Made by a program: the position numbers and the translations under genes. The notes under the pieces were generated by a model. It worked only from the letters and a program-made list of their open reading frames with translations. It had not been told where the DNA came from and searched no databases. Shown piece by piece: positions 3,264-45,900 of a DNA stretch of 64,000 bases. The stretch comes from Prorocentrum cordatum (taxonomy: Eukaryota). Each line of letters starts with the position of its first letter. The first letter of the stretch is position 1. Location: NCBI GenBank assembly GCA_963575745.1, contig CAUYUJ010000001.1, positions 2,232,001-2,296,000 on the forward strand. Reading direction: 5' to 3'.

Positions 3264-3319
<56 letters not shown>

Positions 3320-3966: not shown

Positions 3967-4123
3967 CATTCGGTTGTTGTGTGTTGGGCTGACGGAAAGC
4001 ACAACTCGCTCGCGTTCTCTGTGCTCACTTTCATGATGCAGTTGCGTGCCCTTCCCACTTGTGTGATTTCGACGGAAGCGCGTGGTCTTCAGACTCTTAC
4101 AGCATGCCCCTACTTCTAGCATC

Positions 4124-4237
4124 TGTGAGGCAGTGCATGCGTGACGTGTGTATACGCACCATTCGCCGCCACTCGCCGCCGTTTGACCTCTAGGGGCCCC
4201 TTTTTCTACCATTGCGCTAAAACGCATCATAATCACA
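4124..4237 (+). repeat. 5' LTR (114 bp, TG...CA)
   Basis: tgtgaggcagtgcatgcgtgacg...cataatcaca aligns to 14423-14535 (roughly 85-90% by eye). Confidence 0.92.
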
Positions 4238-4238
4238 C

Positions 4239-4250
4239 TGGTAGCGGAGC
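4239..4250 (+). promoter_or_regulatory. Primer-binding site, probably initiator tRNA-Met
   Basis: TGGTAGCGGAGC begins after a 1-nt spacer following the LTR-terminal CA; it resembles the TGGTAGCAGAG/TGGTATCAGAGC iMet PBS of Copia elements. Confidence 0.8.
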
Positions 4251-4367
4251 TACCACACAATCCCCGTATCGTACCAGTGCGCGCACGTCTCGTCAGAGAG
4301 TGTAGCACAACCTCTCCTTACTTTCCGTACTGGCAGTTTCCCTCGCTAGGCGACTGAGCCTTGCGCC

Positions 4368-5700
4368 ATGGCACGTTCTTCTCTTCGCTATCGGCCGAGC
4401 GCCGACGCGCTGACGCGGTCCGAGACGAAGAGTGGTTCCTACGTCTACGACGGCACGGTGAACAACTTCCACGTGTGGGAATTCCGCACAGAGGTGCGCA
4501 TGAGCGCCTCCTTGGCCTCAGTGGATCAAAAACGGGTGCGCCACAGCAACACGGGATCACCGCAGCTGTCAACAAGGATGAGAAGGCCTCAGAGGTGACG
4601 CGTTTGATATTGTCATGGATATCGGTAAGGACGTGCTTCTGACTCCGAATGGGATCGACCAGCTGGCGCTGGCGATTCGTACTTCGCTCGTCCCCATAGA
4701 GGCACCCTTCCCCATAGAGGCACAGGGAGCGAAGATCCTGTTCCTGGTGGGGCAGAGACCATATGGACCACTGTCACGACAGCACGGTGAGTCTATGGTC
4801 CCGCACATCTCCCGAAGGAAGCGCTGGTGGAAACTTGTCTCCAAGCTAGATCCTAAGATCTTGATGAGTGACGATATGATTGGATCACTTCTCTTGGACC
4901 ATACAGGTCTCTCGCCTTCGGAGAACCTGATGGCGTTGGCATCCACAGGACATGTGACGACCTTCGACAAGATCAAGGATGTTTTGATCCTTCTGCATGG
5001 CCGTATACACATCCGCCAATACGGCCAGGGTGAGTCCGGTAAAGGCTCCAGCTCTTCGGCGTGGACGCAGCCCAGACCCAGCTACCAGAACAGGAGCAAG
5101 GGCAAGGGCAAAGTGCTCTTCTCCAGGCCACAACACGCCTTCTACACGACTGGTGAATGATGGTGCGAGCAGGAGGAGCATCACCCTGAGGAGCTGAGTC
5201 CTTACGGATATTAGGCGTCCGGCTACGCGCCAGAGCACGGCTGGGACGACACGGCATGGGATGACTACGCCGACGAACACACCTACATTGACGAGGAATC
5301 GTATGCTCACTGGGCTCCTGTCCAGGATAGCAGCGAGCTCGACGTCGAGGTGGTCGACGAGATGGTCAAGGCTGGATACGCAGACGACGAAGCCACTCAC
5401 GCGATCCAAGAGGACCCGGTAGCCAACCTCGGCACCAAGGGGAGGAGCAAAGGCAAAGGAAAGAGCGGAGGCAAGAGTTCCCACCACACGCCCTGGCCGC
5501 CTAAGGGAGGCGGCAAGGGGGGACCTTCCCTGGAAGATCGCAATAAGCGGCTCCAGGATATCAAGAAACGCTCGAAATTCAAAACTGGCCACGAAACAAG
5601 CCATTGGTCCGGGGGCCCTGAATGCAAGGGCAAACCCAGGACGGTAATGGTAGCGCATACAGAAGGCACTTGCGAGCGCCATGTCCAGTTACGCGAGGGC
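4368..5700 (+). pseudogene. Copia gag remnant with degenerate zinc knuckle
   Basis: Fragments YDGTVNNFHVWEFRT and RRKRWWKLVSKLD, KGKGK tracts, and KKRSKFKTGHETSHWSGGPEC (decayed CCHC knuckle); frameshifted. Confidence 0.65.
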
Positions 5701-6841
5701 GACGACGAACAAAAGTTCACATCTGTCAGTTGTGTTGCTGCATCACCAGCACCCCCTCGTCCTATCATTAGAAACAAGGAGGGGTCGATGAGGATGGGTT
5801 TCGGTGTTTCTCGCTTCTGATCCCCCTTCTCTTTTCGCATCATGCGCCACGGGCCACGCGCGCACGCAGGAGCGAATTGCGACGGGCAGTGCAGCTCGCG
5901 GCGCAACCGCGCTTAGCATCATGTCTGCGAGAGTTGGATGGGGATGACCGAAGCCACTCGGTTTCAGGGTCCTCCAGAGCTTCAGGACCAGGAGAAGAGT
6001 CTTCAGACTTCTACAGAGGCCGAAGGGGGATACTCTAGGGTTCATGGCTGTTCGCTCGACCGAATCTTACTCCATGGCTCGCGTTTCTGACGAGGAGTTT
6101 GAGGTGGGGGAATCTGCTTCGGATCCCATCTCTGTTCCTGGTCAGGGTACAGCGCATGCTTCGGGCCAGCACAAAGGGCATCGCCATGTCGCGCTCCCAG
6201 GAATATTCCAGACCGCGTAGATTGGGGTCGCAAAGTGAAGAAACCAAGCGAGGATCTGGTTTTGTTCTCAGGGTGGGCAGATAGCAACTGCCCCCGAAGG
6301 AAGAGGACAGTTTGTGGGAGTTTCGGGGCCGAAAGATTCCGAAAACAAAGTTTTGCCTTCTCCGAGTTCTTCTTCCGGCTTGAACGGGAAACCTCAAGAT
6401 CCCCCGTGGCCTCGCCCATGTGCCCGAGGGTGTAAGAATCTCTCAGAGGTCGGTTCTAGCGCTCGTTTCATCGCTCGCACCTGCAAGGATTGCGGTCACA
6501 AGACCAAGGAGTGGAGGCGCGCGGCACTGCGCCCCCCGGGTGAGCGTCCACGCGATCTTGTAAATAATCGCGGCAGCACTCCAGATATCTTTCGTGCGCA
6601 TTGTTGTCGTCGTTTGACATAGATTGATGAACAGCCCAGGAAGCTAGCAGAAGGCAAGAAAGCAACAGCCGAGAAAGTTGGGCGCTCCAGCAACATGCAA
6701 GCTGAAGCAATCGAGAAGATTAGCGAGGAGGATCGCCGTATCATCTCTGTAGAGTGAAAGCTTGTATTACAGGCTTTCAACAAACGTGCTGTTGATATTT
6801 GCTATGATACAGGTGACACTAGCACCGGTGAGCTGACCCCG

Positions 6842-7375
6842 TTGCTTCATGACCGCGTCGCAGAAGTCGCAGATCACAGTCTTGTCGGTGTTATGGCACC
6901 AACACAGAACGTTTCGATCGAAGGTGCAGCTCTTTTTAAATTTCGCACGGTTGACGTCTTCAAAGATGAAGGTGTGTGGATTGTTCTGGACGAAGGTTGT
7001 AACTCGCGTTGCCGCGGCAAAGCTTGGGCTCTTGACGCAGGGCAGAAATTGGAGAACTTGGCATTCTACCCTACGCGGGCCCGCGGGCAGCGCAAGACGT
7101 GCAGCGGCGTTGGAGGACAAGCAGGGAGTGTGACGACAGGTGAGACGAGTTTCCCGTGTCGCATCGTTGCTTCTCGCGGCGCCGTGAGTGGATGTCTCGA
7201 GTCACATCGGTTGCAAGATTCGGACCATGTTCCTCTCTTGTTATCTCTTCCTGGACAGGCTTCTCTCTGTCTGGCGAAGGATATTGCTAATGGTCGCGCT
7301 CGCTCGAGTCGGGGCGGCGAGGTAGGAATGCGTCCCTGTGCGCGCTCAGGTCTGTTGACCACTCGTCTTGCTTAG
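6842..7375 (+). pseudogene. Copia aspartic protease remnant
   Basis: VWIVLDEGCNSRCRG (D-x-G motif at ~6989) and downstream PLLLSL. Confidence 0.65.
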
Positions 7376-7714
7376 TTTTATCCTAAGCGCGTTGCGGATT
7401 CCATTGGTCCGCTGCACGCGTCGCATCTAAGCAGCTGCCCAGCTCCCGCCGGCCGCGCCGCGCCCCCTGCTGTCGCCGGTCACTGCGGCAACGGCGGGAT
7501 CGCGCGCGCGCCTACGCCCGTCGACCATTCCAGTGACAGCGAGGACGCGCGGGTCGCTGCTATGGCTGCTGGTGCTGGTGCTCGCCCCACACCACAGGGC
7601 TCGAAGTTTTCAGTGATCACGCTGGGTTGGGGGAACTTCGAGTAGAACCCGAGGTGCTCGGGGTCGTCGATACTGAGAGAGTACATTCGTCGCCACCATC
7701 GCTCCAGTCATGAT

Positions 7715-8130
7715 GTGACCACCAGACGGCACGACGCCAACGCCATCATAGATGCGCTCATTGCTGCAGATGAGAATATGGCGAACTATGATCGGCACGT
7801 TTTGATGGACACCAGAGCTCTGAACGATCCGACTCACACGCGTCACAACGGGCATCATCTGGACATCTTGCGCAATTCAGTTGAGAACGAACGCTTTGTT
7901 GGCATCGCTGAGTGTGTAGGAAAAGCTCTGGCGAAGAACAAGTGTTCACATTATGTGTGTATTGTTGCCATCTGTCGTTCTGCTCGGCATCGCTCTGTTG
8001 CAGTCAGTTATGGTTTCAAGCAGTTCTTGAAGCAGTAGGAGATCGAATTCTGCGCACCTGAGCCGTCATGAGTGAGTGGTCCCAGCGCACTTGCAACGGG
8101 GAATGCGATGACTGCTGTCACGTATCCGAT
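7715..8130 (+). pseudogene. RapZ C-terminal-like domain inside the Copia polyprotein region
   Basis: LMDTRALNDP..HNGHH and VCIVAICRSARHRSVAVS resemble the RapZ DxRxLxNP and IAIGCTGGxHRSV motifs; followed by Cys-rich WSQRTCNGECDDC. Confidence 0.55.
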
Positions 8131-10086
8131 TGGGGCCGTAAGATGGCGCGCGCTGCGACTGACAAGATGGTTTCGCTCTTTACTAAATTTTTCGAGAAGT
8201 TCAGTGCACCGCCGCCTCCAGTTCCTGACCAATCTGCAAAGCGCAGACCCCGTGACGGGGCTGAGCTGGCCAGGAGGGAGGAGAAGAGGTCTCGCACTTC
8301 ATCGAGTGGTTGACGGAGTAGACGACAACGACGTGGCCACCTGTCACCCTCGAGCACATCAGAACGATCTGGCGGGAACGTCTTGGCTCTGAGTATATTG
8401 AGGTAGATTTCGAGGTCATGATTAGACGGCATGCCTGGAAAGAGCTGCAATTATATTGGAAGGTCTGTCACGAGGACAACAGGGCGTCTGCAGATTATGC
8501 GACGCGCGCGTACTGCTCGCGAGTATGCAGAGACTGGTATTTTATTTAAACCTGTTGGTGGCAGTTCTTCCTCTGCTGCTGCACCGCCGCCACCTGTCGC
8601 CGCGTCGTCTTCCGCCGCTGCATCAGCCCCATCATACCAGGCGCGAGATCCGCAGGACGATGACGACGACGTGCCGAAGAAAAAGGCCCGCATGAGCAGC
8701 GCCAGCAAAGAGACGGGTCTGCCGCCGGGCGAAGCTGCCCCTCCGGGCACTATCGCTCGCCCTCCTGGAACGCCACCTACGACGCCGCCGCCCAAGCACA
8801 AGCCAGCCGTCCTCGTGCCGACGCAGCCGGACGGACCGCCGCCTGCGCGCCTCGGGACTCCCCTGCCGCCTCCGCCACCGGAGCCGCCGCGCAAGGTAGA
8901 GCCGCTGCCGCCACCGCCAGCGCCTCCGGCGAGCACTGTTCCTTCCAGTAGCGACGACGAGTCGAACAAGACTCGCGCGTCTCGTTCAGGATCCCCGACT
9001 TCTCTCGAAAGGGACCTGGCCGCGGTGAGCGGTGCTCTGGCCGGAGATCCAGTCGTGGACTTCCAGCCGATTGCAGCTGGCGCAGAGCAGCTGAATTCGC
9101 TCTTCTTGCAGGCCATGAAGCAGGGCAAGAAGAGGAACATCATCACGCGCGTTGACCCTCGATCGCTCCCATCAGAGGGATCGACTGGCCGCGCAGACGA
9201 GCGGGACACTGAGAAGTTGGTGCGTGCCAGCTGCAAGATTGATTCGTTCAACACCCAGGTCAAGTTCCCGCCGGCATGGTCTTCTTGGACGAAGTTCGAT
9301 GGGCCGCACCAAGGACACCCAGTCTTGGAGGCGCATAGAAGATCGTGCTGCCATGAATTATTATGTTGATGCTGAAGAGCACGATCGAGTAGCAATATTT
9401 GTGCAGCCTCCGAGAATCCGCGTTGACGGAACATCGTACTAGCGCACGTCCCTGCAGCTGGATCAGCATGAGATGACTTTTATGAGTGCTAAGAATCGTG
9501 CCAAATATTGCTCGGGATTGCGTCGTACCGGTCTGCAAGATGAGTTGTTGTCTGCGCGCGTTGCCGAGCCGTCCGCGCCGGGCATGACTGCTACCGACAA
9601 GGAGATCGTCGAGGAGGTGATCGGGAGCACCGATCCGCTTCGCGGACGAGTGGGGACCAACCTGGCCGTGGTGCTGCTCTACGTCATCGGCATCACATTC
9701 GCCTGCCCACTCTCGAGCGATACGGCTGTGCGCCCAGATCGGGGGCCATCGATGGCAAAAAGACATCGTCGAGCGCAATCCTGATCTTGTTGTAGCCTGC
9801 ACATCATCATCAAAACATCATGCGATCAGCGATTGTTTCTCTGGTTTGGCTCGAAACCATGGTCCTGTATCTGTTGCGTTAGGTTATGAGCCCGATTGCT
9901 CAAGCCTTGAGGTTACCAGCGCGCTGAACTCGCACCTCGAGTCAGATGCCGACATCACGAGTCAGCACTCCCCTGATGTCCTCAGAGAGTTCGGTCAGAA
10001 GGTTAGACTAGATAGGCAAGCATTTTTAGCTTTCTCCGCTGAAGCCGCAGAGGAGAGAGCTAGAGACAATATGGACGCGATCATCG

Positions 10087-11160
10087 GTGATGACGACGTC
10101 TCTACTGTCTATAGTGCGCTTGCGAGATGAAGAACAAGATATCCTGGAACAAATCAACTTACCTGGCGAGCCAGAACACGAAGGAAAGAGAAGGAGAGCG
10201 CAGTTGCAAATCCCGCTCCGCAGAAGGGTCGCTCTTAGACGACTGCGCAGACACTTTGGTCACGTACCTACTCGTGTTCTCGTGCAACTATTGAGAATGT
10301 CGAGGACGTCGTCGGACTACATTCAAGCTGCCAAGCATGATTGCTATGAACATTACGAGCATCATCAGCCGTTAGCTCAGACTCATAAGGTTGCCTTGCC
10401 CAAGAAATTCAGCTTCAAGCATAAGATCGGTATCGACTGTCTGGAGGTAAGGGGCAACAGTGGAGAACGTTGCACCTTCTTGAACATAGCGCGCCAGGTA
10501 CAACATGTCAACGCGTAGTCTTTATCAAACAGGGAGGTGGTGCGCCATCTTCGAGAGCACGCCTCGCTGCATTCCAACAATTCCTGCAATGGGTGAAGAG
10601 TCACGGGATCGACCTCCGCGGCGCCGGAGTCGAGTCTCCCGAACAGATAGGCCGCACCGAGAGACATGGTGGACTTTGGAAGAACATCTTCAAGAGGGTG
10701 GTACACGACAAAAATGTCACCGGACTCGATGAAGTCACCTATACTGCATCAGAAGTTGACAACACGAAGAATGATGTCACGAGTCGGCGGATTCGCGCTT
10801 GCTCAGTGGGCAATCGGAAAGATGCCCCGTGTCCCGGGGAGCCAATTCGACGACGAGGAAGCTTTCGACTTAGGAGTGCTTGCGGATGTTGCAGAGGACG
10901 GAGCCGACAAGTTGTCTCGCCAGGCTGCGATCCGCGCGTCTGCCAGGAAAGCATTCGCGGAACACGACGTCGGGAGTAGAACGGCGAGGGCCGCTTTCCG
11001 AAAAGCAACGCCACTTGCCGGGGAATACCAAGTAGGTGATGTAGTGCGCTTCCGTAAAAGGCCGACCGACGGCGAAGTCACTGCTAAGTGGAGCACTGGT
11101 TCTCGCATCGTTGGATTCGATGGCAAAAACGCACGGGTTATCACAGAGGGTGTGCTTGTT
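10087..11160 (+). pseudogene. Copia integrase remnant
   Basis: ALRRLRRHFGHVP (decayed HHCC), IGIDCLEV, ESPEQIGRTERHGGLWK (catalytic E region), GFALAQWAIG; frameshifted. Confidence 0.85.
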
Positions 11161-11779
11161 TGTGGCTGTCGACAGGCTTCGGCCGCGTACTGCGGCGGAG
11201 GCGTTGGCAGACCAGTATCTCTCCAAGCACCACGACGGTGGAGTCGAAAGATGTGCACCTCCAGACGGACAACCACAGTCATTTGTGGACGCAAACGCGA
11301 GCTGCCAGCACCACAGGTACAAGAGCATTCTGTACAAGAACATCATGTGGCGACAGAAGAGCTGCCTGGGATCCCAGAGGACCCCGAGTTCATAGAAGAA
11401 GAATTTCGCCAAATGGAGGAAGATGAACTGCCTGAAGGAATGGTCGTTCCTGTGACGCCCGTGTCGAGTTCATCGCTGATGACTCCAACGCCACTCCAGA
11501 GGTCTTTGCTAGACGACGCACCACACGGTATACAGAGTCGTAACGAAGTGATGTGCAGAAGAGTCGAGAATGTTAATGGTTGTACGGGAAGGGTTTCCGT
11601 TTCTGCCTCGGAGCTAGCTCCCGATCCGGCGAACCCGCTTCTTGATGCCATGCGCAGGGCCGGAACGCCAGGGCCAGGCATGGATCTGCTAGCCCGCAGG
11701 GAAGCATCATTCTCCGTTAAGCCACATGAATCGCTTGTCGGATTCTGTCTTCAACGAGCGCACCGTTCATAGGCCGCAA

Positions 11780-14140
11780 TCCAAGAAGAAGATAAAGAGT
11801 GCAAAGAATTTGGTATATCATCGAGAATCTGAGGACGTTGAAAACGGCTTACGACTGGCAAGACAAGACGAATGGGGAATATGGCGGAAGTTCAACGCCG
11901 CTGTACTTATTGATGCCGTTGAACTGCAACATCTCCTCGACAAAGGATATCGTATGGCACCTACACAATGGATTGAGATTGACAAGAATGACCATCTCCG
12001 CAGACCGGGGGGACATCCGGTTGCACCGCAGTACAAGAGTAGACATGTTGTACGCGGAGATTTGGAAGAGACATTGGGCGTCCGCACGGATTCGCCAACA
12101 TGCGAACTAGAACTTGCGAACTAGAGGTTCCTGACCCTGGAGATGCGACATCGTCTACGCATCTCCAGGGTCAGGAACTCGACCGCCTCATGCTGCTAAA
12201 GCCACCACCCGACGGACTCGACGGAGCACCGGGTGGCGGGGCACTGATCGCGCGCATGCTTTCTATGGCACGCGCGACGCAGGACGAGGCGTACGGAAGA
12301 GAATTCGCCAAAGGTTTGAAGTTCATGGTCTAAATGAGAATCGTAGCATGTCCTTTTTGTTCAGAATTCAATGACAAGAATGAGATCACGTGCGTGCTAG
12401 GTACACATGTAGATGACATACTATGGGCTGCAGATAATGAAAGCCAGATAATCATCGATTCGGCAGTAGCAGAGGTTGGCACTCGCGAGATAAAGTTGGA
12501 TAGTTTCCGTTACTGTTGTTTAGAAGTTGGAGGGGGCAGTGATCATGTTCACCCTATATGTATATCTAGTAAAGTTATCAAACGGGCATGTAAATCGGCA
12601 CTACAAGCAGAGACTCTGGCTTGTTTATGAGGTGTAGAATCTGGTGTACGCATCCGTGCCGCCATCGCAGATGCTCGCGGGATGCTGGGTGCCGGAAAGA
12701 AGCTCCCAACCAATTTGGGAGACAAATCAGCCATGTCTATGAGACATCATGGATGACGGATTGTAAGAGTCTCGAAGAACATCTCATAGCCCCAACTATA
12801 GGCAAGACAGAAGATCGGAGGTGAGGGGGTGAGATCGAAGTGGAACGGAGAGCCCCCCCACCGGGAAATCGATTTCGGTTTCGTGTTCGTGCGTGCCGTG
12901 CGGGCGAGGCGAAGCTGCGTGGGCGGGCGAGAGAAAGTCTCCTGTGGCTGAGGCGCGGCCGGACCAAATGACTCCCTTCCGGGCGGCCGGGGGCCCGCAG
13001 TGTCCCGCCGGTGTCCCGCTGGTGTCCCGTGTGGTTGAGGCGCGGCCGGACCAAATGACTCCCTTCCGGGCGGCCGGGGGCCCGCGGTGTCCCGCCGACG
13101 TCCCGCCGGTGTCCCGTCCGTGTCCCGTCGGTGTCCGATTGATGATGTTGATGATGAATATGATGATGATTATGATGATGATGGTGATGATGATGATGGT
13201 GATAATGATGATGATGATGATGTTGACGATGGCGATGATGATGATGATGTTGATGATGATGATGACGTCGATTGCGAGATCGATTGTGATATCGGTAGTG
13301 AGACCGAATGCGAGATCGATTGTGTCGAGTGGAAATTGCCGATGGTGGTATTGATGATGATGTTGGTGACGATGATGCGGATGATGAAGGTGTCCCGATG
13401 ATGTTGATGATGCTGTTGGTTATGATGATGATGATTAAATGATGATGGTGATGATGATGATGATGATGATGGTGTCCCGATGTTGTTGATGATGTTGACG
13501 ATGACAATGATGGTGACCATGATGGTGTCCCGATGATTATGATGATGCTGATGGTGATGATGACGAAGGCTGTGTGCCGAAAATGATGATGATGTTGCTG
13601 ACTATGATGAGATTATGATGGGGATGATGATGATGATGATGATGGCCTGATGATGATGGCGTTGATGATGATAACGATGATGATGATGGCGACAGTGTCC
13701 CGATGACGATGAGAATGATGGTGTTGGTGATGATGATGACGATGACGTTGAATGTTAGATCGATTGTGATATCGGTAGTGATATCGATAGCGAGACCGAA
13801 TGTGAGATCGATTGCGAGATCGATTATCAGATCAATTGTGAGACCGAGCGAATGAGATATATCGAGTGATATCGATTGTGCGATCGATCGAGTGAGATCG
13901 ATCGAGCGAGACCGATAGTGAGATGGAAATTGAGACCGATCGAGTGAGACGCTGCATGTTCCCCCCCCCCGAACCCCCTTATCACCCGCAGGGTGGTCGT
14001 ATAGGTAAGCGATTGAGTATTGATTTCGGGAGTTTGAGACAGGATAGTTGGACAAATGGAATGGAAGAGGTAGAGACCCTACATCCACGCAACAGTTGTG
14101 ATAATATCCCTTGGATCGCTACAAGTATTATGGGCTGTTG
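11780..14140 (+). pseudogene. Copia RT/RNase H remnant, split by the insertion at 12815-14005
   Basis: YKSRHVVRGD...RTDSPT, GTHVDDIL, SSKVIKRACKSALQAETLA, WMTDCKSL, GKTED|KRLSIDFGSLRQ; apparent deletion between RT and RNH near 12530. Confidence 0.88.
12815..14005 (+). mobile_element. Non-autonomous Helitron-like element, copy 1 (internal ggtgtccc, (GAT)n and gagatcgat repeats)
   Basis: Starts with TC, inserted between A and T with no TSD (removal restores GAA GAT AAG CGA TTG); subterminal hairpin ATCACCC-GCA-GGGTGGT; both ends shared with 42440-43307. Confidence 0.7.
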
Positions 14141-24646: not shown

Positions 24647-26483
24647 TGGGAGGGGAGGGGCGGGGGGGGGGGCACATTCGCGAGATGGCGCCGCTTGTTG
24701 GCTCGTCTTTGCATTTGCGCAGGCCCGGGCAGAATTGGCCTCCGCGTGGATCCCGGCCACCGCGTTCGGACTCGGCTTGGTTCGCGGGCGTGGCTGCGCT
24801 GTGCTGTGACCGTCGTCTCTTTGGCCCTTGGTCGCGCGGTTCGCGCAACCTCCCTCTGAAGCAGGAGTAGGGATGCCCGCGCTGGCTTGGCAGTGGAGCC
24901 GCTTTCGCACCGGGCGGCGGGCCCGTTCACGCCCGCCTCGGGAGCTGGCGCAGAAGGGCAGCCAGGCGTTGCTCAGCAGCGGCCCCCTCGCGCTCGAGGC
25001 GGTGAGCGCCGAGACCACGAAGGCATACTTTGCCCGCAGGCCCGGCGAACGCGCGGGCCGGTCGAGCAGCTCCGGGGCGGTGCGTAGCAGAGTGAAGCCC
25101 AGCAGGAGGCGGGAACGCGCGTGGCGGAGCGGCCGTCCGCGCAGGGGAGCGAGCGGAGGGGCGAGATGGAGGCCGAGAAGACCTGCGGCCCCGCAGGCTT
25201 GGATCCTCCCCCTGGGCGCGACGGCGATCCTTGAGCTCCTCGGCCCGAGGGGGCGGGGGAGCCCCCGCTGGCGAGGCCCCGGCAGCTGCGGCGTCTGCAG
25301 GCCGATGGCGTTGGGCAGACCGAGGCCGTGGCCGTGGCTCTCAAGAGAGAGCTCGGCGACACCACGGCGCCCGAAATTTGTCGAACGAGCACAAGACGGC
25401 ATCAGCATAAATCTTAGGAGCTCCGTGCGGATTGCTTCGATCTGCTCGCGAGGGGTGGACCTCCAACAGTTTCTGCTTATGCGGGAGATCGAGCAAAACA
25501 GGACAATGACGAAGCCAAACGCCAAAACGATGACGCCGCCGACGGCGCCGACGAGCCTTACCTTACTTCGTCGTTCGTCGTCGTCGTTCGTGTTTCTCTC
25601 GTTGTCCACTGCCCCCACCACCAGGCCCCGGCTCGCCCTCTCCCGCGGCCCCTGGTGGGGCCTCGGATCCGCCCCATGCTCCTTCGCAGCCATGCCCTGG
25701 TGTTCGGGGCTGTTTCGTCTTCTTCTTTTTCTTCTTCTTCTTCGCCCTCGCTCCGTTCGCCACCCGCCCCCCCCCACACCCCCTTCCTGAAGAGGCCGTC
25801 GTGGAGGCCCTCAAGAGCCCTTCCTCCCCTCTCCGGCCTTCCTGCGATGGCCAGGGCTGGGCCAGGGTAGGGCCTTTCTGGATCGCCGTCCGTCCGGCTG
25901 TCCTGCGAAAGAGGCCGCGCTTCCGCGGACCCTCACCGGATCCGAAAGGGTCCAACCAACGAACCGACTTGCTGGCCCCCCCCCTCACCCACCCCGCCCC
26001 CAGCACCCCGCGCCTCGTGGCCCAGCCGCGCAGGATGCCACGGCACGGCGCGCGGCCCTTGTCCTCTCCGTGGCCGCGGCTCGTTCGCTCGTCTCTGGCC
26101 CCCTCCCCGCGGCCACGTCTTAAGGCACAGCTGCCCCTGGTCCCATCCTTCAGTCGCTGCCAGAAGTCTTCGTCACTCGTTCGCTCGTCGCCCTTCCCCC
26201 TCCTGCCTCATCGCGACGCCCCCCCCCCCCCCCAAAAGGCTCCAGGATGGCCCCGAGATGCTCCCCCTCTTCGCTGTGCTCGAGCAAGGGCCAGGCCACG
26301 CGTGCTACGCGTTTTCGATTGTCATCGCTCCCAGATCCCAGCCCTGAGACGGCTCCCAGTGGCCTCCCAAGTGGCCCACAACCGCCCCAACATGGCTCGA
26401 ACACGCCCTCGGAGCCCACGCGGGCAGCCGATTTGTGATTCTAACACGATGGCCCAGGGAACCTCAATACGCACAGGCAGTCC

Positions 26484-26505
26484 GTCGTACCCATTTTGGC
26501 TCAAG
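26484..26505 (+). other. Genomic relict dinoflagellate spliced leader upstream of RPL34
   Basis: gtcgtacccattttggctcaag versus DCCGTAGCCATTTTGGCTCAAG (20/22), 66 nt before the ATG. Confidence 0.9.
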
Positions 26506-26571
26506 GCCGCGCCTCTGAGCCACGCTAGGGTTTCTGCGGACACCGAGCCTCAGCGCGCACGGGAAGCAGCG

Positions 26572-27108
26572 ATGGTGCAGCGCTTGACATACCGGAAGCA
26601 CATCCGCTACAACACCAAGGGCAACAAACAGAGGAAGGTGAAGACACCGGGTGGGAGATTGGTCTTCCAGCAGCTGAAGAAAAAGGCGTCGCCGCCCAAG
26701 TGCGGCGATTGCGGCAAGGCGCTCATCGGGATCCCTTGCTTGCGGCCGAAGGAGTACAGGCTCCTCAAGAGCCGCGAGAAGCGCGTTAACAGGGCCTACG
26801 GCGGGTCCCGCTGCGCCAGCTGCGTGCGCTCGCGGGTGATGCGGGCGTTCCTCATCTGATGGGCAAGTTTCCCACCACCATTGCCACAGGTAGGACGGGG
26901 GAGAAGAGAAGATGTGGAGGTCCTCCTCCTCCTCCTCCTCCTCCTCCTCCTCCTCCTCCTCCTCTTCCTCCTCCTACCAATTCTAGTGGTGGTGGAACAT
27001 CGGCCCATCATCATCGAGGAGCAGAAGTGCGTGAAGCAGGTCTTGGCCGAGAAGATGTCTCAGAGCAAGGAGAAAGACGCGCCCAAGAGGAAGAAGGCCA
27101 AGGCCTGA
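26572..27108 (+). CDS. RPL34: 60S ribosomal protein L34 (eL34) retrogene, interrupted at 26857-27015; possibly a pseudogene
   Basis: MVQRLTYRKHIRYNTKGNKQRKVKTPGGRL...CGDCG...RAYGGSRCASCVRSRVMRAFLI (26572-26856) joined to EEQKCVKQVLAEK...KAKA* (27016-27108). Confidence 0.93.
26857..27010. mobile_element. 154-bp TIR element (MITE/Introner-like) in RPL34
   Basis: Ends tgatgggcaagtttcccaccacca / tggtggtggaacatcggcccatca are imperfect inverted repeats; TSD TCATC at 26852-26856 and 27011-27015; internal (CCT)n. Confidence 0.85.
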
Positions 27109-27191
27109 GCGGCTGGACCACGCACGCCGAGGATCCCTGCGGCCGTGCATTGCACTGGTCGAAGCTCGCGGACATCCACAAAATACATAGA

Positions 27192-28823: not shown

Positions 28824-29768
28824 GGATCGGGGGTTGCTACAGGCGCCCCTGGCCGAAGGTACCCCCAGCTTTTCGCTCCATGTTGGAGCCCCTGGGGCCC
28901 TCTGGGCCTCGTGAAGGGGGCTCTGGAGGCCGTGCGGGGCCTCCCGGGAAATCCTGGGGGCACCTTGGCCCTGGTGCACTTCCAGCAACACGCAAACAGA
29001 GGCGGGCGGCGCGGCGAATAATATGAGGATGGCCTGGAAGGAGGAGGAACGAGGCATGCTGAGGGAGCAAGGAGGAGAGAGCGGCACGAGCGAGCAGCGA
29101 GGGGCGAGGAGGAGGGCGGGAAGGGGGCAGGAGAAGGCAGGAGGACGAGGAGAAGAAGCATCGGCGAGAGCGGGAGAAGCATGGAGAGCAGCAGGAGGAG
29201 GAGGAAGAGGGAGGGGGGAGGGCGGCCCAGTCCAGCACAACGTTCTCGTGATTGGGCGGATGAGTCAAAGATCCAAGCCATCCATGATTGGCCTAGTCCG
29301 AAATTGCCGTCGCAATGGCAAAACCGTCGTTCGCGCTTGGCGTCACGGTCGGCCCGCCATGAAACGAGGAGGATCGGTGCAGACGCGCACGCATGTGGTA
29401 TAGCGAAGGAGCGTATCCACCGACAGGTGTGCTGTTGTATAGATGTGTTCGTCCTCACGTACCTGCTGTCTCTGTCATGTGCCGATCGTGAAAATACCAT
29501 CGTCGTTGTTCACTACCGGGTTGGGTTGGGCTGGCTTGGTGGGTAGTCAGTTGTCCACCCAGCATCTGCAAGTTGCCGACGTCCCCGCTCGCCTGGGCTG
29601 CCGCAGCAGCACCGCGTGTGTCTGCCCACCCTGGTACACACATTGTAAAAGATGCAAAGCGTTCGTGGGCCAAGCTGCTGAGGAGTCTGCTCCGTACCAG
29701 GCGGATCATCAAATGAGGAAAAACATCAAAAAACCACATGGGGCGTTCCAAAAGGTGCCTTGCATGCG

Positions 29769-29805
29769 ACCATCGCCATTTTGGCTCAAGCCATTTTGGC
29801 TCAAG
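29769..29805 (+). other. Tandem DinoSL: full 22-nt leader plus 15-nt relict
   Basis: accatcgccattttggctcaag (20/22 to DinoSL) immediately followed by ccattttggctcaag. Confidence 0.93.
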
Positions 29806-29939
29806 GCAGCTGGCCAGGTCAGCTCGGGCCTGTCTTCAGGCTCGGCCCTCGACACACGGGTTTGGGGGCAGGCCCTTTTGGCACAACCTCATCCAGTCTC
29901 ACTTTCGCAAGTTGTGAGTTCAGAGTCACCCGCGCAGCC

Positions 29940-30767
29940 ATGGGAGATGCCGCGTCTGAGTGGTTATCGGCCTTCGTCACAGGACAGTTCGCTGCATTGA
30001 CGAAGACGGTCACCGACACGAACAGCCAGCTGACGGGCCAGATCAAACAACTGGACGGACGGATGGCTGCACTCGACATCAAAGTAGAGCAGATGGAGAT
30101 ACGTATCCAAGCTTCAGAAGAAGCTATGAAGACAGCATCAGTGACAGCCTCCAGCACGCTTGGCACAGACAGGACGAAGCGGGCTAGAGTGGGTATGACA
30201 ACTGGGACAGACACCAGCGATTCATGTAGAATGTGGGCGAGTGGATATCCACGCGCTGTTCTTGCTGCCGCGGGACAGACGACCTGGCAGCAGCTCCAGC
30301 AAGGAGCACCGAGCCACCTCGTGGACGGCACCACAGCGCAGTTTGCAAAAACGAGTCAAAGTTTCTCCATCCACTTCAAGAATGAGGACACGGCAAAGAA
30401 AGTCAAATAATGGTTGCAGCTTCAATGGAAGGATGCGCGAGACGGATCATGTCATGCTCTACGCATTCGCACCGACCTCCCAAATGACGTCCGTCATCGA
30501 CAGAGACGCATGTCACATTTACGGGCGCCGATCGTTCAGTTCTTGAAGAATAACAAGAAGTACCAAGCCGACTACAAGATCGGCGCAAACGGGTTCCGCA
30601 ACGAGTTCTTCATCCGCACATCCGGTGACTTATTCATCTTGGCAAAGGGTGAACAGGACGGGCTCGGCCGGCTGGTGCTCAAGCCCAGCAAGAGCGACCT
30701 CGCCTTCTGGGGCATTCCCGTAGACCAGATGCAGCAGTGGATTGACGGATGCGGCAGTGCACGCTGA
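29940..30767 (+). pseudogene. LINE ORF1 (coiled-coil N-terminus; in-frame TAA 30408-30410)
   Basis: MGDAASEW...LTGQIKQLDGRMAALDIKVEQMEIRIQASE heptads; the frame continues to 30767 (LRIRTDLP). Confidence 0.7.
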
Positions 30768-30953
30768 TGGTCTCCGACGCCAGCTTTTCCGGCGGCACGC
30801 TGCGCGGGGGCGACAGAGGACATCGCCGCAAACACGCATTCGCAGATCACATGCTCATCGTCTTCATGCTCCTCGTCCACGTCGAGCGCCTCCTCTTCCT
30901 GCTCTTCTGACTCTGTTCACGATCTGGCTAGCCAGCCAGGCGATCCCCATTTT

Positions 30954-33900
30954 TTGCAGCCGCTGCCGCCTCTGATTGTTCCCGACTGGCCCCGCGGCCA
31001 GCACGCAGTGCACCGGCGGCCTTTTCTCCGCGCCTCCTCGCTTGATATCGTTTCCTGGAATGCACCTGGTCTCATCGGCCCGGCGCGGGCCCGTCGCCAG
31101 GTGAATGTTTCGATTAGGTACAAGAAATCCCTCGGACTCTGTGAGCGCCACAAAATTGCCTGCGTTCAGGAGACTCACGGGACTATCGCCGTCGCCAACT
31201 GTAAACGACAAGAATTTCGACATGCGAATGTAGGTTGCACTATGTTTCAGGACTCCACCAGGGCTGGAGGGCCTGTCACTTTCATCGCTGCTGATCTTGC
31301 ACGGCAGTTTCATACCGTTAAACACCATGTGATTTAGGGAGGCAAGATGCTAATGAGTGTCATGTTGGGGGACAAAGGGAACTTGGCTGTCATGGATGTC
31401 CACATGCCGAACACGTGCGAGTCGCTAGCAGTCTATGCATCCAGCCTTGACGAGCTACTTGAGGTTTTACCGCCTGCCGAGCAGCGTCTTCCAATTATCC
31501 TGGGGGACTGGAATTCCACCTTGGAGGAGGAAGGGAGGATGTATCCTGACGGGGCGGGCCGGTCCCGAGGTGACACGCGTTCCCACGCGCTCTTTAACCA
31601 GAAGTGCTCGGATCGGAGTGAATTCTTTCAAGCAGATGACACTCGTCGGGAGATGAGGGGCGGCAACATTGCCCACGCCGCGCGTTTCGACCGCATCTGC
31701 TTCAACATTCGAGCGGCGGTCGCGGCTGACCTTACTATCCGCGCTTCAGTCATAGGTAAGCTCTGTCAGGCCCGCGTCCCTGATCACATCCCAGTGTTTG
31801 TCGTAATTGGCACTTTCAAGCCCCCCAATGGCCCGAATAGCGGGGCCCCCAACTGGATTAGCAGGAGCGAAGTCTACCAATAACTACTTGGCACGGAGCT
31901 CAGCAACAACGCCGTGGAGTTTCATTCAGCACATGTAGCTGATGCTCTGAAGGCTGTTAAGGCTATCATGTGCTCAGTGGTCAAGCGCGCGGCATCTCCT
32001 TTCCAATCAAGTTGCTTCGACATTTATTTTGAAGCATCACTGGCGCATGGTAGCCCTGAGGGGGATACGTGCACAGCAGGACCACATGGTGTGCAAGGCT
32101 GTCAGTTGCGATCCCGAGCTTCAGAGGTTCTTTGACTGCGAGACCCTGCTCTGTCACGACCGCCATGGTCATTGTGAATTGACGCAGGAGATTTATGTTA
32201 TGATTCTAACTGAGGAGGAGGAGGAGATTGAGAACGATAACAGCATGAACGACGATACCAAGAAAGCCGCACTAGCAAAACTACGGGGGGAGATGGAGCT
32301 TTGGAGGGGATTCAGAAGGCGAACATATCTCACTGCCGTACTAGACGCTAACGGAAGCCCGCGTACTCCACTCGAGCAGTTGGCCAACGTGCTTGCCGAA
32401 TATTGGGGGAGTTTTTTTTGCCCGCCAGCTACGGAAGATCGTTCCAGGTGGGCGGAAATTCTGAGACATGTTCAAATGGTTCCCGAGGACCTCGAGGTTT
32501 CCTGGAAGGTTGAATATGCTATTTTTTGAACATATACGACACTGCCGTAGCTCGATGCCTGGGCCAGACGGCATTCCATATGCGCGCTGGCGAATTGGAG
32601 ATGCGCCGAGATACCTCTACAATTTTTATCGTGAGATTACCAGTGGAAATGTTTCAGAGCTGCCTGGCGACATGGGGGAACTACTGCTGATTGCCCTACC
32701 TAAGGGTGAGCAGGAGGGGGACGGGGCAGGGAACAGTATTCGGGATGCAGCATGCACGCGCCCGCTCCCCATGTCTGACACCGGTGCGAAGATCCTCTCT
32801 GCTGCGTTCTGCCACCCATTGAATGAGCTCTCTAAAGTGACTGTCGCACCCCATCCAGAAGCGTGTTAAAGGTAGACAAATGCCCACGATGTAGCGCAGG
32901 CAGAAAGTTGGGGGCTACAACAAGAGTTGCTGGCGCATGACTCGGGCTGCCATCCTCTCGGCTGATTTCTCCGCTGATTTCCCGTCGCTTCTGCATGTTT
33001 GGATGTTTGCCGTGCTCAATGCTATGACTGTCACCTCCTTCATCACTAACTACTACGTCATGCTCTATAAAAATAACCCGGGCGCGGTAACTCTTGGTGG
33101 GCAGAAATCCAGAAGGTTTCCTGTCCAGAGGGGGGTGCGTCAGGGCGACCCTAGCTCTATGGCCCCTTTCTGTATTTGCATTGATCTTGTATTGCGATGG
33201 ATACAACAGACCCCGCCCCACCCATGTTGTTCTGCGCCTTGCGTATGCTGACGACTGTCCTTTGGAATGGTGGATGTCTTTCGCTCGACTACTGCCGCGT
33301 GGCGCATGCTCCCCGTCCTCGAGTCAGCTTTTGGGCTGGCGCTCAACTTTCGCAAGTGCACTGTTCTGATATGTGGGAGGAGGTCAGTGACGTGATGTCC
33401 AAGGAGGCGACGGGTTTGGAGCTGGTGGGAGTAATTTCTGCTATCAAGTACTTGGGGCTGTATATTGGCCCAGACGCCGCCGGCGTGGCATGGGGCGCCC
33501 CGCTCTCGAAATGCGTTGCAAGATGTGCGATGCTCCGACAGCTCGCCCCTGGATATGCGATGACAGTTTCTACCTTTTTGGTAACGTGCCTCTCTGCACT
33601 CCAGTTTGTCCTCCAAGTTGAACCAGTCACGAAACAGGTCATGCATATATAGAAGCACATGCTACAATGCCTTACGAATGGCCCATACAATGCCTTCTCG
33701 TATAACATGCTTGTCTCGCTCCAGAAGCTCAGGATCAATATCGAGTCCCCAGATCTCGTTGCTCTCTCGCGCGCCTGCCGCACCCGTCTCGCTGCGAAGC
33801 GCCCTGGCATTCGCGAGTGCTGGGGCGAGCTGCTGAAGCACACTGAGAGCAACGCAATATGTCATGCCAGAGTTGTCGACCCACTGGGATGGCATCGCAG

Positions 33901-34528
33901 GTCGATTTTCTCTAAGATGTTCGAGGTGGTGCAGAGTGTCCAGAATATTGTGCAGCTCTCCGATCTCCCCCCTGATACTCTCCAACAGAAACTCCACGCC
34001 CGTCTCCGCGCCCTTCCACTCCCTGGACCTACGGTGTTTGAAGGCCTTCAATATCGACTGAGGAAGTGGCTGCCTGAAGTGGATTGCAGTAATCCCCCCC
34101 GTCTTGTCCTTCAAAACCGACGCGACGCAGCAGCGACTTCCCCTTGCCTTGCTATGTGTGTTCTTCGTATATGCACGCGTGCTGCGTGCACGAGTGCTCG
34201 CTTCCACTCTCATCCTCGCGGCTGTGTCTTTGGGTATACTCATCGGGAATATGGGTTTGATATGTCTCGGGACTATAATGATCTACGTCATTACAATTTC
34301 TGCCATCGCTTCCGCGAGTTATGTGTCCAATGGATGGGTACTGCGTTTCCAATTGCCCCTGTGAGGATTCCATTGGTTGCCGCGCTGGTTCAGCTCTATC
34401 CTCTTCCCCCGAATGTGTCGCTGCTGTGTGCCTGCATGTGCGATGCTTTCCTGCATGCTCACCACTGCGCGAGGCTGAGCCTGCCTGGAAGGCCCAGCAA
34501 AACTTTGAAGCTCGCCTCCGTCTTCTGA
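30954..34528 (+). pseudogene. LINE ORF2: AP endonuclease plus reverse transcriptase, multiply disrupted
   Basis: VSWNAPGL, CVQETHG, ILGDWNS, RFDRIC, PDHIPV; PGPDGIPY, RPLPMSDTGAKIL, GVRQGDPSS, AYADD, KYLGLYIG; C-terminal CVFG...HYNFC. Confidence 0.92.
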
Positions 34529-35329
34529 CTCGGAGGCATGTGGCTGTTGCTGAGGCGTGGGTTGACCTCCTGTGCAGGGCCTGGGTGGCTTGCCCCTGCT
34601 GGTGTGTCTTTGGGGGCCGAAACAGCTCTGTCTCAGGGTACGCAATGAACTTCAGGGGCAGTGTCGTCTCTGAACGCTGGCCTTTGGCTCTGGCCGCTGT
34701 GCCACTGGGGAGGCGGCGCGGCATTCATCATCTGATCGTGGCCCGCGGCCAAAACCAAAGCCCTCGCAGCACCCGGTTCCGGAGCTGCGGGGGCGGCGGT
34801 CGAGGCCCCGCGGCTAGCGACGCATTGGAGCGGGGACGACATGGCGACAAGGCCCCCAAAAAAGTGCCTTGCATGCGTGGTTAGAAGAAGCTGTCATCTC
34901 TTCCTCGGCGGCAGGGCGGCGGAAGGTCGGCGGAAGTAAACCGAGGGCGCTTCCGCCAGCGGAAGCCGGCGGAAGCTGGCGGAAGGGCGGCGGAAGGCGG
35001 CGGAAGTGAAAAATGCGCCCCCCAGAGATGAAAACGTTTTTGGGTTCAGGGTTTCCGAAATCCGCCACATTTTGCATATTTTGAACTTTCGGAGGTCTGC
35101 GCGGATTTCGTTCATCGGCGCTGGGCCCCCTCCCCGGCGCGCGGAGCGCGCCGGGGGCGGCGCCAGAGGCGTCGCCGGGTCCAGTGCCGATCCAAGAAAG
35201 TCGCGCGGACCGTCGAACGTTTATGCTTATGTTGTGTCCTCTTCGGGAGATGCACCCCGACCCCGAAAATGAATCGCGTTTACTGAACTGCCCTGGGCGC
35301 TTGCTGAAAAGCTCCTTTCCGCTCGATTC

Positions 35330-42900: not shown

Positions 42901-45900
42901 TAGTGAGATTGATAGTGAAATCGATACTGAGTTCGATACTGAGATCGATGTGGTGCCCCGAGGTGTCCCGCGGTGTCCCAAAAAGTGAGACCGCTAGTGA
43001 GATCGATAGTGAAATCGACAGGTGTCCCGTGGTGTCCCGTGGTGTCCCGTGGTGTCCCGTCGAGTGTGATCGATAGTGAGATCGATAGTGAGATCGATGT
43101 GGTGTCCCTAGGTGTCCCGTGGTGTCCCGTTGAGTGAGATCGATAGTGAGATCGATAGTGAGATCGATAGTGAGATCGACAAGTGTCCCGTGGTGTCCCG
43201 TGGTGTCCCGTTGAGTGAGATCGATAGTGAGATCGATTGAATCAGATGTTGGTTCCCCCTCCTCTCCCCCCACACCCTCCTTATCACCCGAAGGGTGGTC
43301 GCATAGTTATTTCATTATGGTCGCGAGGGGGAGGAAGGGAGGAAGGGAGGGAGGGAGGGCGAGCGGGCGATCCCAGCGTCTCTCCACAGGACTGCTATTA
43401 CTTATCGCTGTGTCACTTGGGGGCCTAGCGGGGATGAGTCGGCTTGTGTCCCCCGAGAAGCCGGCCCTGACGGTGTAGCCGCGGCCCCAATCCGCTGCAG
43501 ATTGAGCCGGCTCGCGGCCCACGGGGCCACTCGCAGGTGCGTTCTGCGTCGGGCTTTGATAATGTATGCATGTTGATCCTGCATCGCTGGGCCTCGGACA
43601 AGGCGGGGCAATGGAGAGGCGCGGGAGGCGGAGGGGGGGGGCGGGGGCGAGGGAGGGGGAGGCTCCGATGACCGCTGCGACGTAGGCGTCCTCACCCGTG
43701 GGGTGAGCCACGTGCTCTGGGGACGCCTGGGAACCAGGGGCCACTTCTTGGGCACGAGGGCGGCGGGCCTCGAACCGGGCCCTCTCGGCCCCATGGCAGA
43801 AAGATCCGACAGACCTTGCACGAGGAGGGCGGCTGCGCGAGAGAAAGCCAGCCCGGCATTGGCGCGCCAGTGGCGCGCCAATGCCGGGCTGGCTTTGCCT
43901 CGCGCGGCGTGGGGAGCCCTCTGCGGCCTGGCAGCAGCCGCGCGGCTTCGGTGGGGCCCCGCGCACGGCCGAGCCCGAACGCCGCCACGGGCGCTGACCG
44001 ACGCGCGTGGCAGCTGTCCCGTGCGAGGCTCTCGGATAACTGTTTAGAGCCCCCGGAACCTCGAACCAGGACGGTGGCTTGGGAGGGAGGGAGGGAAGGA
44101 GGGGGAGGATGCAGGGAGGGAAGGAGGGGGAGGATGCAGGGTGGGGGGGGGGAGGGAGGGAGGGAGGGAGGGAGGCGGAGGTCCAGGGGCCCGCAGGCGA
44201 CTCCGTAATCTGGATGTGGCACAGCGGCCTCGAGCTGGAACCGGAGGACCCGGCGTGGTTTGAGAAGCCGGTGTCGGGCAGCTCGGACACGGCGATCAGC
44301 GTACCCAGATATCCGACAATATAATTGCTCCGATCCGGCGTCTTTCGGCCCATGGGGCTGTGGAGCCAGTTCACGGGCCCCAGCACCATCAAGAACGGAT
44401 CGGGGGCGGGAAGTTGGCCCCAGGGAAGGGTCCAAGACCTCTGGAGCCGCGGATGGAACAAATCACGTCGGTGGCTGTCAAGGTGGCCGTTTTCTTCTTC
44501 ATTGTTTTGCCGATCGGCGCGGGCCCTGGCACCCCCTTCCCCCCCATGGATCGGGTATATGGTTAAGGGGAGCCGGTTAGTGATTGGGCCCTGGAGCCCA
44601 AAATATGGACTGGAATCGCTAAACCAGGTTTGCAGTAGACAGTTGTTCTTCGTGTGACGGCAGTTCCAGTTAGTGGAATCGGGCGGGGGGGTCCCCCAGT
44701 AGACATCACTAAGCCAGGTCCCGTAGCCCAGTTCCGCCAACGCCCGAATGGAGTAGATCTTGGCTGTTTTTGACGCATGTTTCAAGCAGGTGGAGCCTCC
44801 CCCATAGGATGCACTGGTGCAAACAGTCGCATCAAGCAAAGGTCCAGAGCCAGACCACCACCCCATTTTCGCTCAATGTCGAAACGCCGAATAAGAAAAC
44901 GCTCGCAAGGTACAGTTCAGGGAGGCCGTCAGCGGGGAGACTCACTACGCCATCAAGTTCTCCGAGCCCGGGAGGCGTTCAGAGGTCGAAAAGATACCGA
45001 CACCGCTGTTTTCCCTGAAGAGCCCTCGCCGCCATGGCTGGATTCTCCTTGGACCGTACTCTGGCAGAGTCGAAGACCGAAAAACGCCATACACATGAAA
45101 TGTTGGCTCTCCGCGCGGATTTCTTGGATCCCCTCTGGGCCCCCTCTGGCGGCGCCTTTGGCGCCGCCCCTGGCACGCTCTGCGCACCAGGGAGAGGGGT
45201 CCAGCACAAATCCAAGAGATCCGCGCGGAGCGCCAAAAGGTTCTGCTCATGGCGTCTTCGATTCTTTGAGAGAGGTCTGGGGAGCAGCGGCATCGGTACC
45301 CTGTTTGGCTCTCTAGGTATAGGTTCCGGACGAGCGGTGGCGGGAGGGGCGAGAAGGACCAGAGCGAGTTCAGGGCGAAACGCATTTCCTTTGCAGAGTC
45401 TTCTCTTTTGATTATCCTCCCTCACCTCCCTCCCCCCCCGCCCCGCCCGCCCGCCTCTTGATTCCATCTTCTGGCCCTTCGTTTTCCCACCTGGGCCGCC
45501 TCTTTCTTGTTCCCACCTCCTCTTTCTCTCTTTCCTTTACCGTTCTGGCGCAGAAGGGATGGGAAGCTCTGGTGCAGGATGAGTCCAGGGCCTGGGGGGG
45601 GGTACAGTGGAGGCCCATGCCAAGAAACACCCTGCTTGCCTCCGGGGTGCCCTGGGTTTCTTGGGGTTCCATGGCTTTGCGGCGGGAAGCATGACGCTCC
45701 CACACCAAAAGTTCATGGACATCCTGGGGTCTCAGGGTTGGGCTTTTTGTGGAAGCTTTCTTGTGGACTGGCCTCCACTGTATTGACATTAGCTTGCAAA
45801 GGTGACGGTGGTGTCCCACCAGTGGTTAGCATGGCGAAGCACTTGCTGCATCGTGCTACACAGCGTTTCGCGCCAACACGACCAGACGGTAGGGTGTATA

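Follow-up and report, generated by a model that had tools for sequence, protein, structure and literature searches.

Relict spliced leaders, the recycling of mRNAs, and dinoflagellate long interspersed nuclear elements (LINEs) with target-site duplications (TSDs) are all established. Slamovits and Keeling reportedly described, in 2008, recycled mRNAs or retrogenes that carry relict copies of DinoSL, the spliced leader in dinoflagellates. We analyzed 64,000 nucleotides from Prorocentrum cordatum (GenBank assembly GCA_963575745.1, contig CAUYUJ010000001.1, positions 2,232,001 to 2,296,000 of the forward strand), and refer to this whole stretch as the window. It contains a dead, full-length, L1-like LINE that, with a probability of about 0.8 in our estimate, was copied from a re-trans-spliced RNA and has a stack of spliced leaders (SLs) as its 5' end, inside the TSD.

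Retrogenes with relict DinoSLs are described in PMC3229502, PMC7245778, PMC5585692 and PMC12014239. Like the window element, they have 15-nt relicts, truncated at an AG, behind an SL of 22 nt, and a probable history of repeated trans-splicing, reverse transcription and reintegration. They differ in that here the recycled RNA would be the retrotransposon's own, and a clear TSD exposes the integration machinery. One study found SL-tagged genes to be enriched for 'RNA-dependent DNA replication' and called the mediator of recycling unknown (PMC5585692), a review leans to Ty1/copia elements as the mediator (PMC6050394), and a preprint treats retroposition and retrotransposition as independent (bioRxiv 10.1101/783902).

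Human LINE-1 (L1) resembles the window element in several respects. Its first open reading frame (ORF) encodes a protein, ORF1p, with a coiled coil, an RRM and a C-terminal domain; the reverse transcriptase (RT) of the window element is nearest to that of L1 ORF2p; and both have an APE-type endonuclease (EN), a TSD and an A-rich target. The window LINE differs in that nothing points to an internal promoter in its 5' UTR, its 5' end appears to be a trans-spliced leader, its ORF1 and ORF2 lie in one frame with a single stop between them, and its A tail is very short. SymbioLINE-Dnmt of Symbiodinium is likewise a dinoflagellate LINE with a TSD. It has conserved untranslated regions (UTRs), no real poly(A) tail and an ORF1 that encodes a DNA methyltransferase, and the main text of its description contains neither 'spliced leader' nor 'DinoSL' (PMC5890265). 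The window ORF1, in contrast, is L1 ORF1p-like and not a DNA methyltransferase. Identity with SymbioLINE-Dnmt was rejected because a Pfam search found no DNMT family and ORF1 is predicted to fold like L1 ORF1p.

Other retrotransposons are associated with SLs in different ways. The trypanosomatid elements SLACS, CZAR and CRE insert in the SL RNA gene and borrow its promoter; halves of the SL gene flank them, and their transcripts begin with the SL. The SL of the window element is located within the TSD, and beyond the 3' TSD there is no SL sequence. An SL-gene-specific LINE of the SLACS/CZAR/CRE type was rejected, as there are no SL gene halves at the two sides of the element. L1Tc and ingi are also LINEs in a host with pervasive SL trans-splicing, and their transcripts are unspliced and come from their own 77-nt internal promoter, Pr77 (PMC1874656, PMC8190864), whereas the retrotransposed RNA of the window element would have been spliced. 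The nearest precedent is from Schistosoma mansoni, in which six genomic transposable-element genes with an internal SL were tentatively explained as trans-spliced and retro-transcribed, with assembly chimera as a possible cause (PMC5832876). Between that description, in the parts covered, and ours, a TSD, a relict stack and a terminal position are described for the window only. In the passages of the literature that our searches covered, we found no statement that LINE copies begin with a leader inside the TSD.

Borders and coding content of the element

The first-pass annotation of this DNA had described a LINE whose 5' end is a complete SL stacked on an older relict leader. We confirmed the presence of a LINE with a leader stack inside its TSD: the 14-bp TSD, the DinoSL with two mismatches, the 15-nt relict, ORF1 and ORF2, and the second TSD copy were all recovered (Table 1). 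With one mismatch allowed, the 14-mer of the TSD occurs in the window just twice (0.03 expected). Directly behind its 5' copy is the leader ACCATCGCCATTTTGGCTCAAG, which differs from the canonical 22-nt DinoSL, DCCGTAGCCATTTTGGCTCAAG (as printed in PMC8045281 and PMC5585692), at two positions: G4>A, a CpG transition, and A6>C, which destroys the AG at positions 6-7. The relict that follows, CCATTTTGGCTCAAG, matches the DinoSL at 15 of 15 nt. This 15-mer has three exact matches in the window and four at up to two mismatches (0.21 expected). Published relicts are SLs truncated after nt 7, at the AG that served as splice acceptor (PMC3229502, PMC12014239), and the 22 + 15 nt stack has, as had been claimed, the form that splicing at the AG (nt 6-7) in a genomic SL produces (PMC3229502). 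No third, older relict was found behind the window stack; the score there was equalled by 1215 of 2000 null windows. Because the SL and the relict both lie within the TSD, both belonged to the inserted cDNA.

At its edges, the TSD reads AAAAGGTGCC in the 5' copy and AAAAAGTGCC in the 3' copy. Since AAAAG precedes the 5' copy and AAAAA stands on the 3' side, the TSD may be 19 bp long with one mismatch, in which case the tail would have only one or two A. At the place of the short A tail noted earlier, a run of six A is present, which overlaps the A-run of the target and cannot be separated from it.

Table 1. Features of the LINE insertion, with positions counted from the first nucleotide of the window.
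Feature	Position	Strand	Remarks
TSD, 5' copy (GTGCCTTGCATGCG)	29755..29768	+	may reach 29750 (19 bp with 1 mismatch)
DinoSL, complete, 22 nt	29769..29790	+	20/22 identical to canonical; acceptor AG (nt 6-7) now CG
Relict SL (SL nt 8-22), 15 nt, perfect	29791..29805	+	
LINE 5' UTR, 134 nt	29806..29939	+	open in ORF1 frame; third relict undetectable
ORF1, L1 ORF1p-like (coiled coil + RRM + C-terminal domain)	29940..30767	+	from homologues and the predicted fold of a homologue
ORF2, decayed	30768..34528	+	EN ~31035-31800; RT ~32550-33650; YADD near 33230
3' UTR	34529..34857	+	
Six-A run	34858..34863	+	short poly(A) tail, or partly the target's A-run
TSD, 3' copy	34864..34877	+	

ORF1 begins with an ATG at 29940, is interrupted by an in-frame TAA at 30408, and has its natural stop, a TGA, at 30765. 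One homologue, a fragment (P0001), is 89% identical; another (P0002) is intact, has 281 amino acids, is 45% identical and ends at the same point as the TGA. With P0002 as the query, an exhaustive, profile-free protein search recovered 112 representatives at E ≤0.001, including 27 at ≤1e-10. In the AlphaFold model of P0002, made with 44 family sequences (mean pLDDT 90.2), a long helix at the N-terminus is followed by a disordered linker and a pair of alpha/beta domains. When this model was compared to the PDB with Foldseek, the human LINE-1 ORF1p trimer occupied ranks 1-9 (E 5e-5 to 1.7e-3) and RRM domains came next. The TM-scores were low (0.23-0.26) because the domain orientation differs. By way of this homologue, ORF1 resembles human L1 ORF1p in its predicted fold. 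Scans of metagenome contigs and of viral contigs detected no relative of ORF1.

By source, the ORF1 homologues P0001 and P0003 are labeled 'eukprot', P0002 is labeled 'ena', and a distant homologue, P0074, is labeled 'jgi'. P0001 and P0003, the closest relatives of ORF1 (one of them the 89% identical fragment), have a green-alga source name despite the dinoflagellate-type element, maybe through contamination or mislabeling.

ORF2 starts directly after the TGA of ORF1, in the same frame, and is broken: its frame changes five times or more, and stops interrupt it in frame at 31335, 31881 and 33650. An RT fragment of 118 amino acids (32895-33251) matched Pfam RVT_1 with E 8.7e-6 and 26.0 bits, under the Pfam cut-off of 29.6. 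All eight matches of this fragment among solved structures were non-long-terminal-repeat (non-LTR) RTs, either L1 ORF2p or R2, and the best was human L1 ORF2p (E 3.8e-5). RT pieces of the window are also 31-35% identical to the ORF2 of a metagenomic LINE described below (L052), which itself passes RVT_1; the piece at 32465-32866 had no match in the PDB sequence search. The EN region (31035-31562) matched the endonuclease of L052 by BLASTP (E 7e-7, 26% identity over 183 amino acids), and L052 passes Pfam Exo_endo_phos. The motifs WN, QET and GDxN, which we take to be APE endonuclease motifs, align between the two. Comparison of the EN region with a second metagenomic LINE (L033) was not significant, and a homologous-protein search with this region as the query gave no match. 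Given the ORF1 fold, the RT matches and the EN homology, we assign the element to the L1-like non-LTR retrotransposons, an assignment by sequence matches and fold. The LINE features present in the window copy are an ORF1p-type RNA-binding protein with a coiled coil, an RRM and a C-terminal domain, a non-LTR RT, an APE-type EN N-terminal to the RT, the TSD, and a lack of terminal repeats.

We compared positions 29300-35300 with contigs from four public DNA runs (X1 to X4) at 80% likeness or more; summed contig depth in this comparison does not equal copy number. Run X1 yielded 1975 contigs, with 158 at 99% or more, 360 at 95-99%, 770 at 90-95% and 687 below 90%, and the other runs yielded 580 (X2), 1 (X3) and 57 (X4). 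The contigs span the whole element, and the summed depth over its interior in X1 was 13-122. The window element is a dead copy of a multicopy family, with no second copy found in the window by blastn or tblastn. Compared with other copies, it has small indels at 31984, 32853, 32888, 32944, 33211 and 33260. These are the stretches in which the window copy shifts frame, indicating that the breaks are private decay.

A single X1 contig (depth 26, 30 letters on the shorter side) connects 29763 and 34884 by way of 11 other letters. Its net loss of 5109 bp is the exact TSD-to-TSD distance, and it holds no SL. Only 5 of the 11 bridging letters fit the expected empty site, which argues that the contig comes from a paralogous copy of the flanking repeat and not from an empty allele. 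At this paralogous site, the flanks are contiguous without the element and without an SL. The first-pass annotation had asked whether an SL was present at the empty site before insertion. The paralogous site answers this in part, as it has no SL but is not a true empty allele.

Both flanks of the element are high-copy repeats, with a summed depth in X1 of 558 upstream (29501-29754) and 1050 to 11,900 downstream (34878-35300), where the DNA is rich in GGCGGAAG-like units. Other leader-like sequences are present in the window. At 26481-27110, a decayed leader, TCCGTCGTACCCATTTTGGCTCAAG, precedes a retrogene for ribosomal protein L34e (Pfam Ribosomal_L34e, E 2e-38). About 155 nt with a (TCC)n tract (26859-27012) interrupt the coding sequence of this retrogene, and inspection by eye showed no clear TSD. 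At 44863-44877 on the + strand, a 15-mer (CCATTTTCGCTCAAT) resembles the leader with two mismatches and may be another decayed relict.

Leader stacks at the 5' ends of other LINEs

We searched metagenome contigs for the 31-nt stack and found at least 118 loci (209,648 bases), taking flanks for 80; the counts and matches below are those among the loci listed. There were 124 occurrences, 13 with at least 2500 nt downstream and 37 within 10 nt of a contig end, and 17 loci had at least 2000 nt downstream. The domain scan covered 73 ORFs: for each of the 72 loci in L001-L080 with an ORF of 90 or more amino acids downstream on the same strand, the longest such ORF, and a second ORF of L052. Twenty short ORFs from L081-L117, which are loci of a few hundred bases, were excluded, and 28 further ORFs of longer loci were scanned later.

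Four loci (L033, L034, L040 and L052) have a LINE right behind the stack, amounting to 4 of the 17 loci with at least 2000 nt downstream, and a fifth (L029) has a LINE ORF1. In L033, one ORF contains RVT_1 (5e-16) and Exo_endo_phos_2, with ORF1 upstream in the same frame and one TAG between; the locus has three leader units, the third decayed, and a tail of 16 A. In L052, RVT_1 (2e-12) and Exo_endo_phos follow a perfect 22 + 15 stack that adjoins a (TA)11 tract, and the contig stops short of the 3' end of the element. In L040, a perfect 22 + 15 stack adjoining an (AGAC)n tract is followed by a fusion of ORF1 with an Exo_endo_phos domain. L034 has a perfect 22 + 15 stack and an ORF1-EN region homologous to L052 (E 9e-48). 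In L029, the stack, again a perfect 22 + 15, is on an (ACAT)n tract, and the ORF1 behind it is homologous to L052 (E 3e-6). BLASTP (E ≤0.001) matched L033 and L040 neither to one another nor to the window or L052. We conclude that LINE lineages unrelated by these comparisons carry the same SL-stack 5' end. As for the proposal that each full-length copy supplies its own trans-splice acceptor, it applies to the intact L029, L034, L040 and L052, which keep CCGTAG, but in the window copy the AG is mutated to CG.

Additional candidates were less certain. L065, in which an endonuclease domain lies ~4.5 kb downstream of a stack of four units, is a possible LINE only. An ORF1 profile built from 46 proteins and run against 1284 ORFs gave E <0.01 for L020, L076, L009 and L042; these aligned mainly in the coiled coil and were not counted as LINEs.

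ORF1 and ORF2 lie in one frame with a single stop between them in the window (TGA, 30765-30770) and in L033 (TAG, 3370-3372), and are fused without a stop in L040 (212-2314) and L052 (299-2275). This common frame suggests that ORF2 is expressed by read-through or fusion.

A leader was also seen at the protein level. The distant ORF1 homologue P0074, from a contig of 5198 nt, starts with LAQAILAQAILAQAILAQ, in which nearly four SL units are translated, their frame being that of the window. It aligns with P0002 over nearly the whole length (pairwise E 1e-15; library E 1.9e-6). P0074 was the only one of 114 proteins from the ORF1 search with an SL-coded N-terminus, and only the 10 of these 114 without an initial M could show one. 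A protein search with the SL-coded N-terminus as the query recovered only P0074 itself.

Stacks often adjoin a microsatellite, including (TA)n, (ATC)n, (CAA)n, (TC)n, (ACAT)n and (AGAC)n; examples are L006, L020, L029, L038, L040, L050, L052, L109 and L114. At a self-match of at least 0.7, 18 of 66 stacks were on a microsatellite compared to 2 of 62 mirror controls (Fisher P 1.5e-4), and at 0.85 or more the numbers were 8 and 0. This was the case for stacks of LINEs and of other genes alike, and for four of the five loci, classed as LINEs or possible LINEs, in which the flank was long enough.

An exact 21-nt DinoSL is also found in 119 IMG/VR 'viral' stretches, mostly giant-virus bins, with several per contig (e.g. 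L129, L142, L169, L178). In AT-rich IMG/VR loci, a conserved motif like TATTTTTAAATATAATTTT often stands before the leader, and some leaders are at 50-nt spacing. These loci may belong to dinoflagellate giant viruses whose genomes encode leaders, or may be misbinned DNA. A generic test for TSDs at 153 SL occurrences, mostly from AT-rich IMG/VR loci, found no excess over shifted controls.

Proposed history of the stack and rival explanations

We propose that an ancestral copy would have gained a leader by trans-splicing of LINE RNA followed by retrotransposition. A transcript begun upstream of that copy would then have been spliced at the AG within the genomic leader, losing 7 nt and receiving a fresh 22-nt leader. 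Reverse transcription, presumably target-primed at an A-rich site, would have copied the resulting RNA, with 22 + 15 nt before the UTR, all the way to the 5' end. Integration at ...CCAAAAG/GTGCC... would have left the duplication of 14-19 bp. As reverse transcription ran to the 5' end, the 22-nt leader would have become the first bases of the new copy inside the TSD, and the 15-nt relict behind it implies that the source copy already started with a genomic SL. With an acceptor at the 5' edge of intact copies, a capped, complete RNA could be freed from any read-through transcript. We infer the order of events, the cycle number and the role of the fossil leader as an acceptor that regenerates capped, full-length RNA.

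The first-pass annotation had claimed at least two cycles of trans-splicing and insertion, and two cycles are our best reading for the window copy. The 119 distinct stacks had two perfect units in 102 cases, three in 15, four in one and seven in one. A decayed further relict (score ≥16) was found behind 43 of these stacks, compared to 13 of 565 random windows from the same loci, and in L033 and L065 older decayed units lie behind perfect ones. Units of different age need separate events, so sequential accumulation appears to be common. The claim is favored by this general pattern but is weakened for the window copy by its lack of a third relict and by a published rival, according to which a single trans-splice from a tandem-SL RNA gene, with an exon consisting of SL plus relict, gave both units in one cycle and the stack does not count cycles. 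SL genes with two and with three units are reported from one species, and a single splice has been proposed for stacks in transcripts (PMC6616646); the window copy, with two near-perfect units and no older decayed third, would fit such a donor. The frequent decayed relicts speak against it, as does the fall in conservation downstream in expressed sequence tags (PMC3229502), neither point being specific to the window copy, and the older units in L033 and L065 need events separated in time. We consider a tandem-SL donor unlikely. A single cycle followed by local tandem duplication of 15 nt in the genomic SL, through replication slippage, would also account for two units that are perfect direct repeats, since slippage can duplicate short units. 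It would require the duplicated unit to begin exactly after the AG at nt 7, and the 22 + 15 arrangement recurs in at least 118 independent loci and in published transcripts, making slippage very improbable.

Two further explanations concern how the leader came to lie next to the LINE. Template switching of L1 at 5' ends is known, with U6-L1 chimeras as an example of chimeric retrocopies, and an RT that switched from an uncapped LINE RNA to SL RNA or another SL-capped mRNA would likewise place an SL inside the TSD. The intron of the SL RNA (GTACAC...) or the 5' UTR of another mRNA would then be expected, and neither is seen. Such a switch also leaves unexplained a relict cut exactly at the AG, and five LINE loci have the same clean stack; we give it little credence. 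Least plausible, in our view, is that the LINE landed beside pre-existing SL relicts, or in an SL gene as SLACS and CZAR do, with the 14-bp repeat a coincidence. SL relicts are frequent in the genome, and the window has another at 26491, but the 14-mer occurs only at the two ends with the SL inside, an SL is absent from the paralogous empty site, and the DNA 3' of the element contains no remnant of one. The leader was also rejected as part of an SL RNA gene. In such genes the leader is followed by GTACAC... (PMC12584245), whereas here this intron start is lacking and the relict, then the LINE UTR, follow instead. No Rfam family was found in the window.

Several points weigh against a LINE copied from re-trans-spliced RNA. 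The SL-capped LINE RNA is deduced from genomic DNA, and the 5' end of this family is read from the window copy; the contigs from the public runs leave the junction unread. The outer leader of the window copy no longer has an AG, and the endonuclease of this copy was not seen by Pfam or PDB sequence searches. The empty site is a diverged paralogous repeat represented by one contig with 30 letters on its shorter side. The metagenomic loci were all selected by the stack and are silent on LINEs without an SL; in L033, no TSD was found in the 46-nt 5' flank. Finally, the 119 IMG/VR loci with a full SL (1.13 Mb) had no match to a LINE ORF1, EN or RT at 1e-5. Taking these points together with the evidence above, the core reading, a LINE copied from trans-spliced RNA with the leader stack as its 5' end, holds.

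Meaning for dinoflagellate LINEs and retrogenes

Leader-stack LINEs with a TSD or poly(A) indicate that LINE RNA enters the trans-splicing pathway, and that SL-capped RNA is reverse transcribed all the way to its end and inserted, in the window copy between TSDs as in a LINE-type insertion. Given the other SL-stack LINE loci, the window LINE with its leader stack is not a one-off. Leader-stack LINEs also indicate that a splice acceptor is passed on at the 5' edge of a full-length element. This offers a possible route by which a LINE could keep a complete 5' end without an internal promoter, and SL addition may act in place of such a promoter, as the first-pass annotation suggested.

More broadly, and as a tentative proposal that we regard as possible rather than probable, L1-like LINEs of dinoflagellates may be passengers without a promoter of their own. 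Read-through from host gene arrays would transcribe them, SL trans-splicing at the fossil-leader AG of each full-length copy would free them, and each round would restore the capped, complete 5' end and add one relict, so that the stack would serve as a generation counter. Under the same proposal, the LINE machinery may also make thousands of SL-tagged retrogenes. Dinoflagellate genomes contain very many retrogenes tagged by relict leaders, and LINEs are a concrete candidate for the machinery that produced them.

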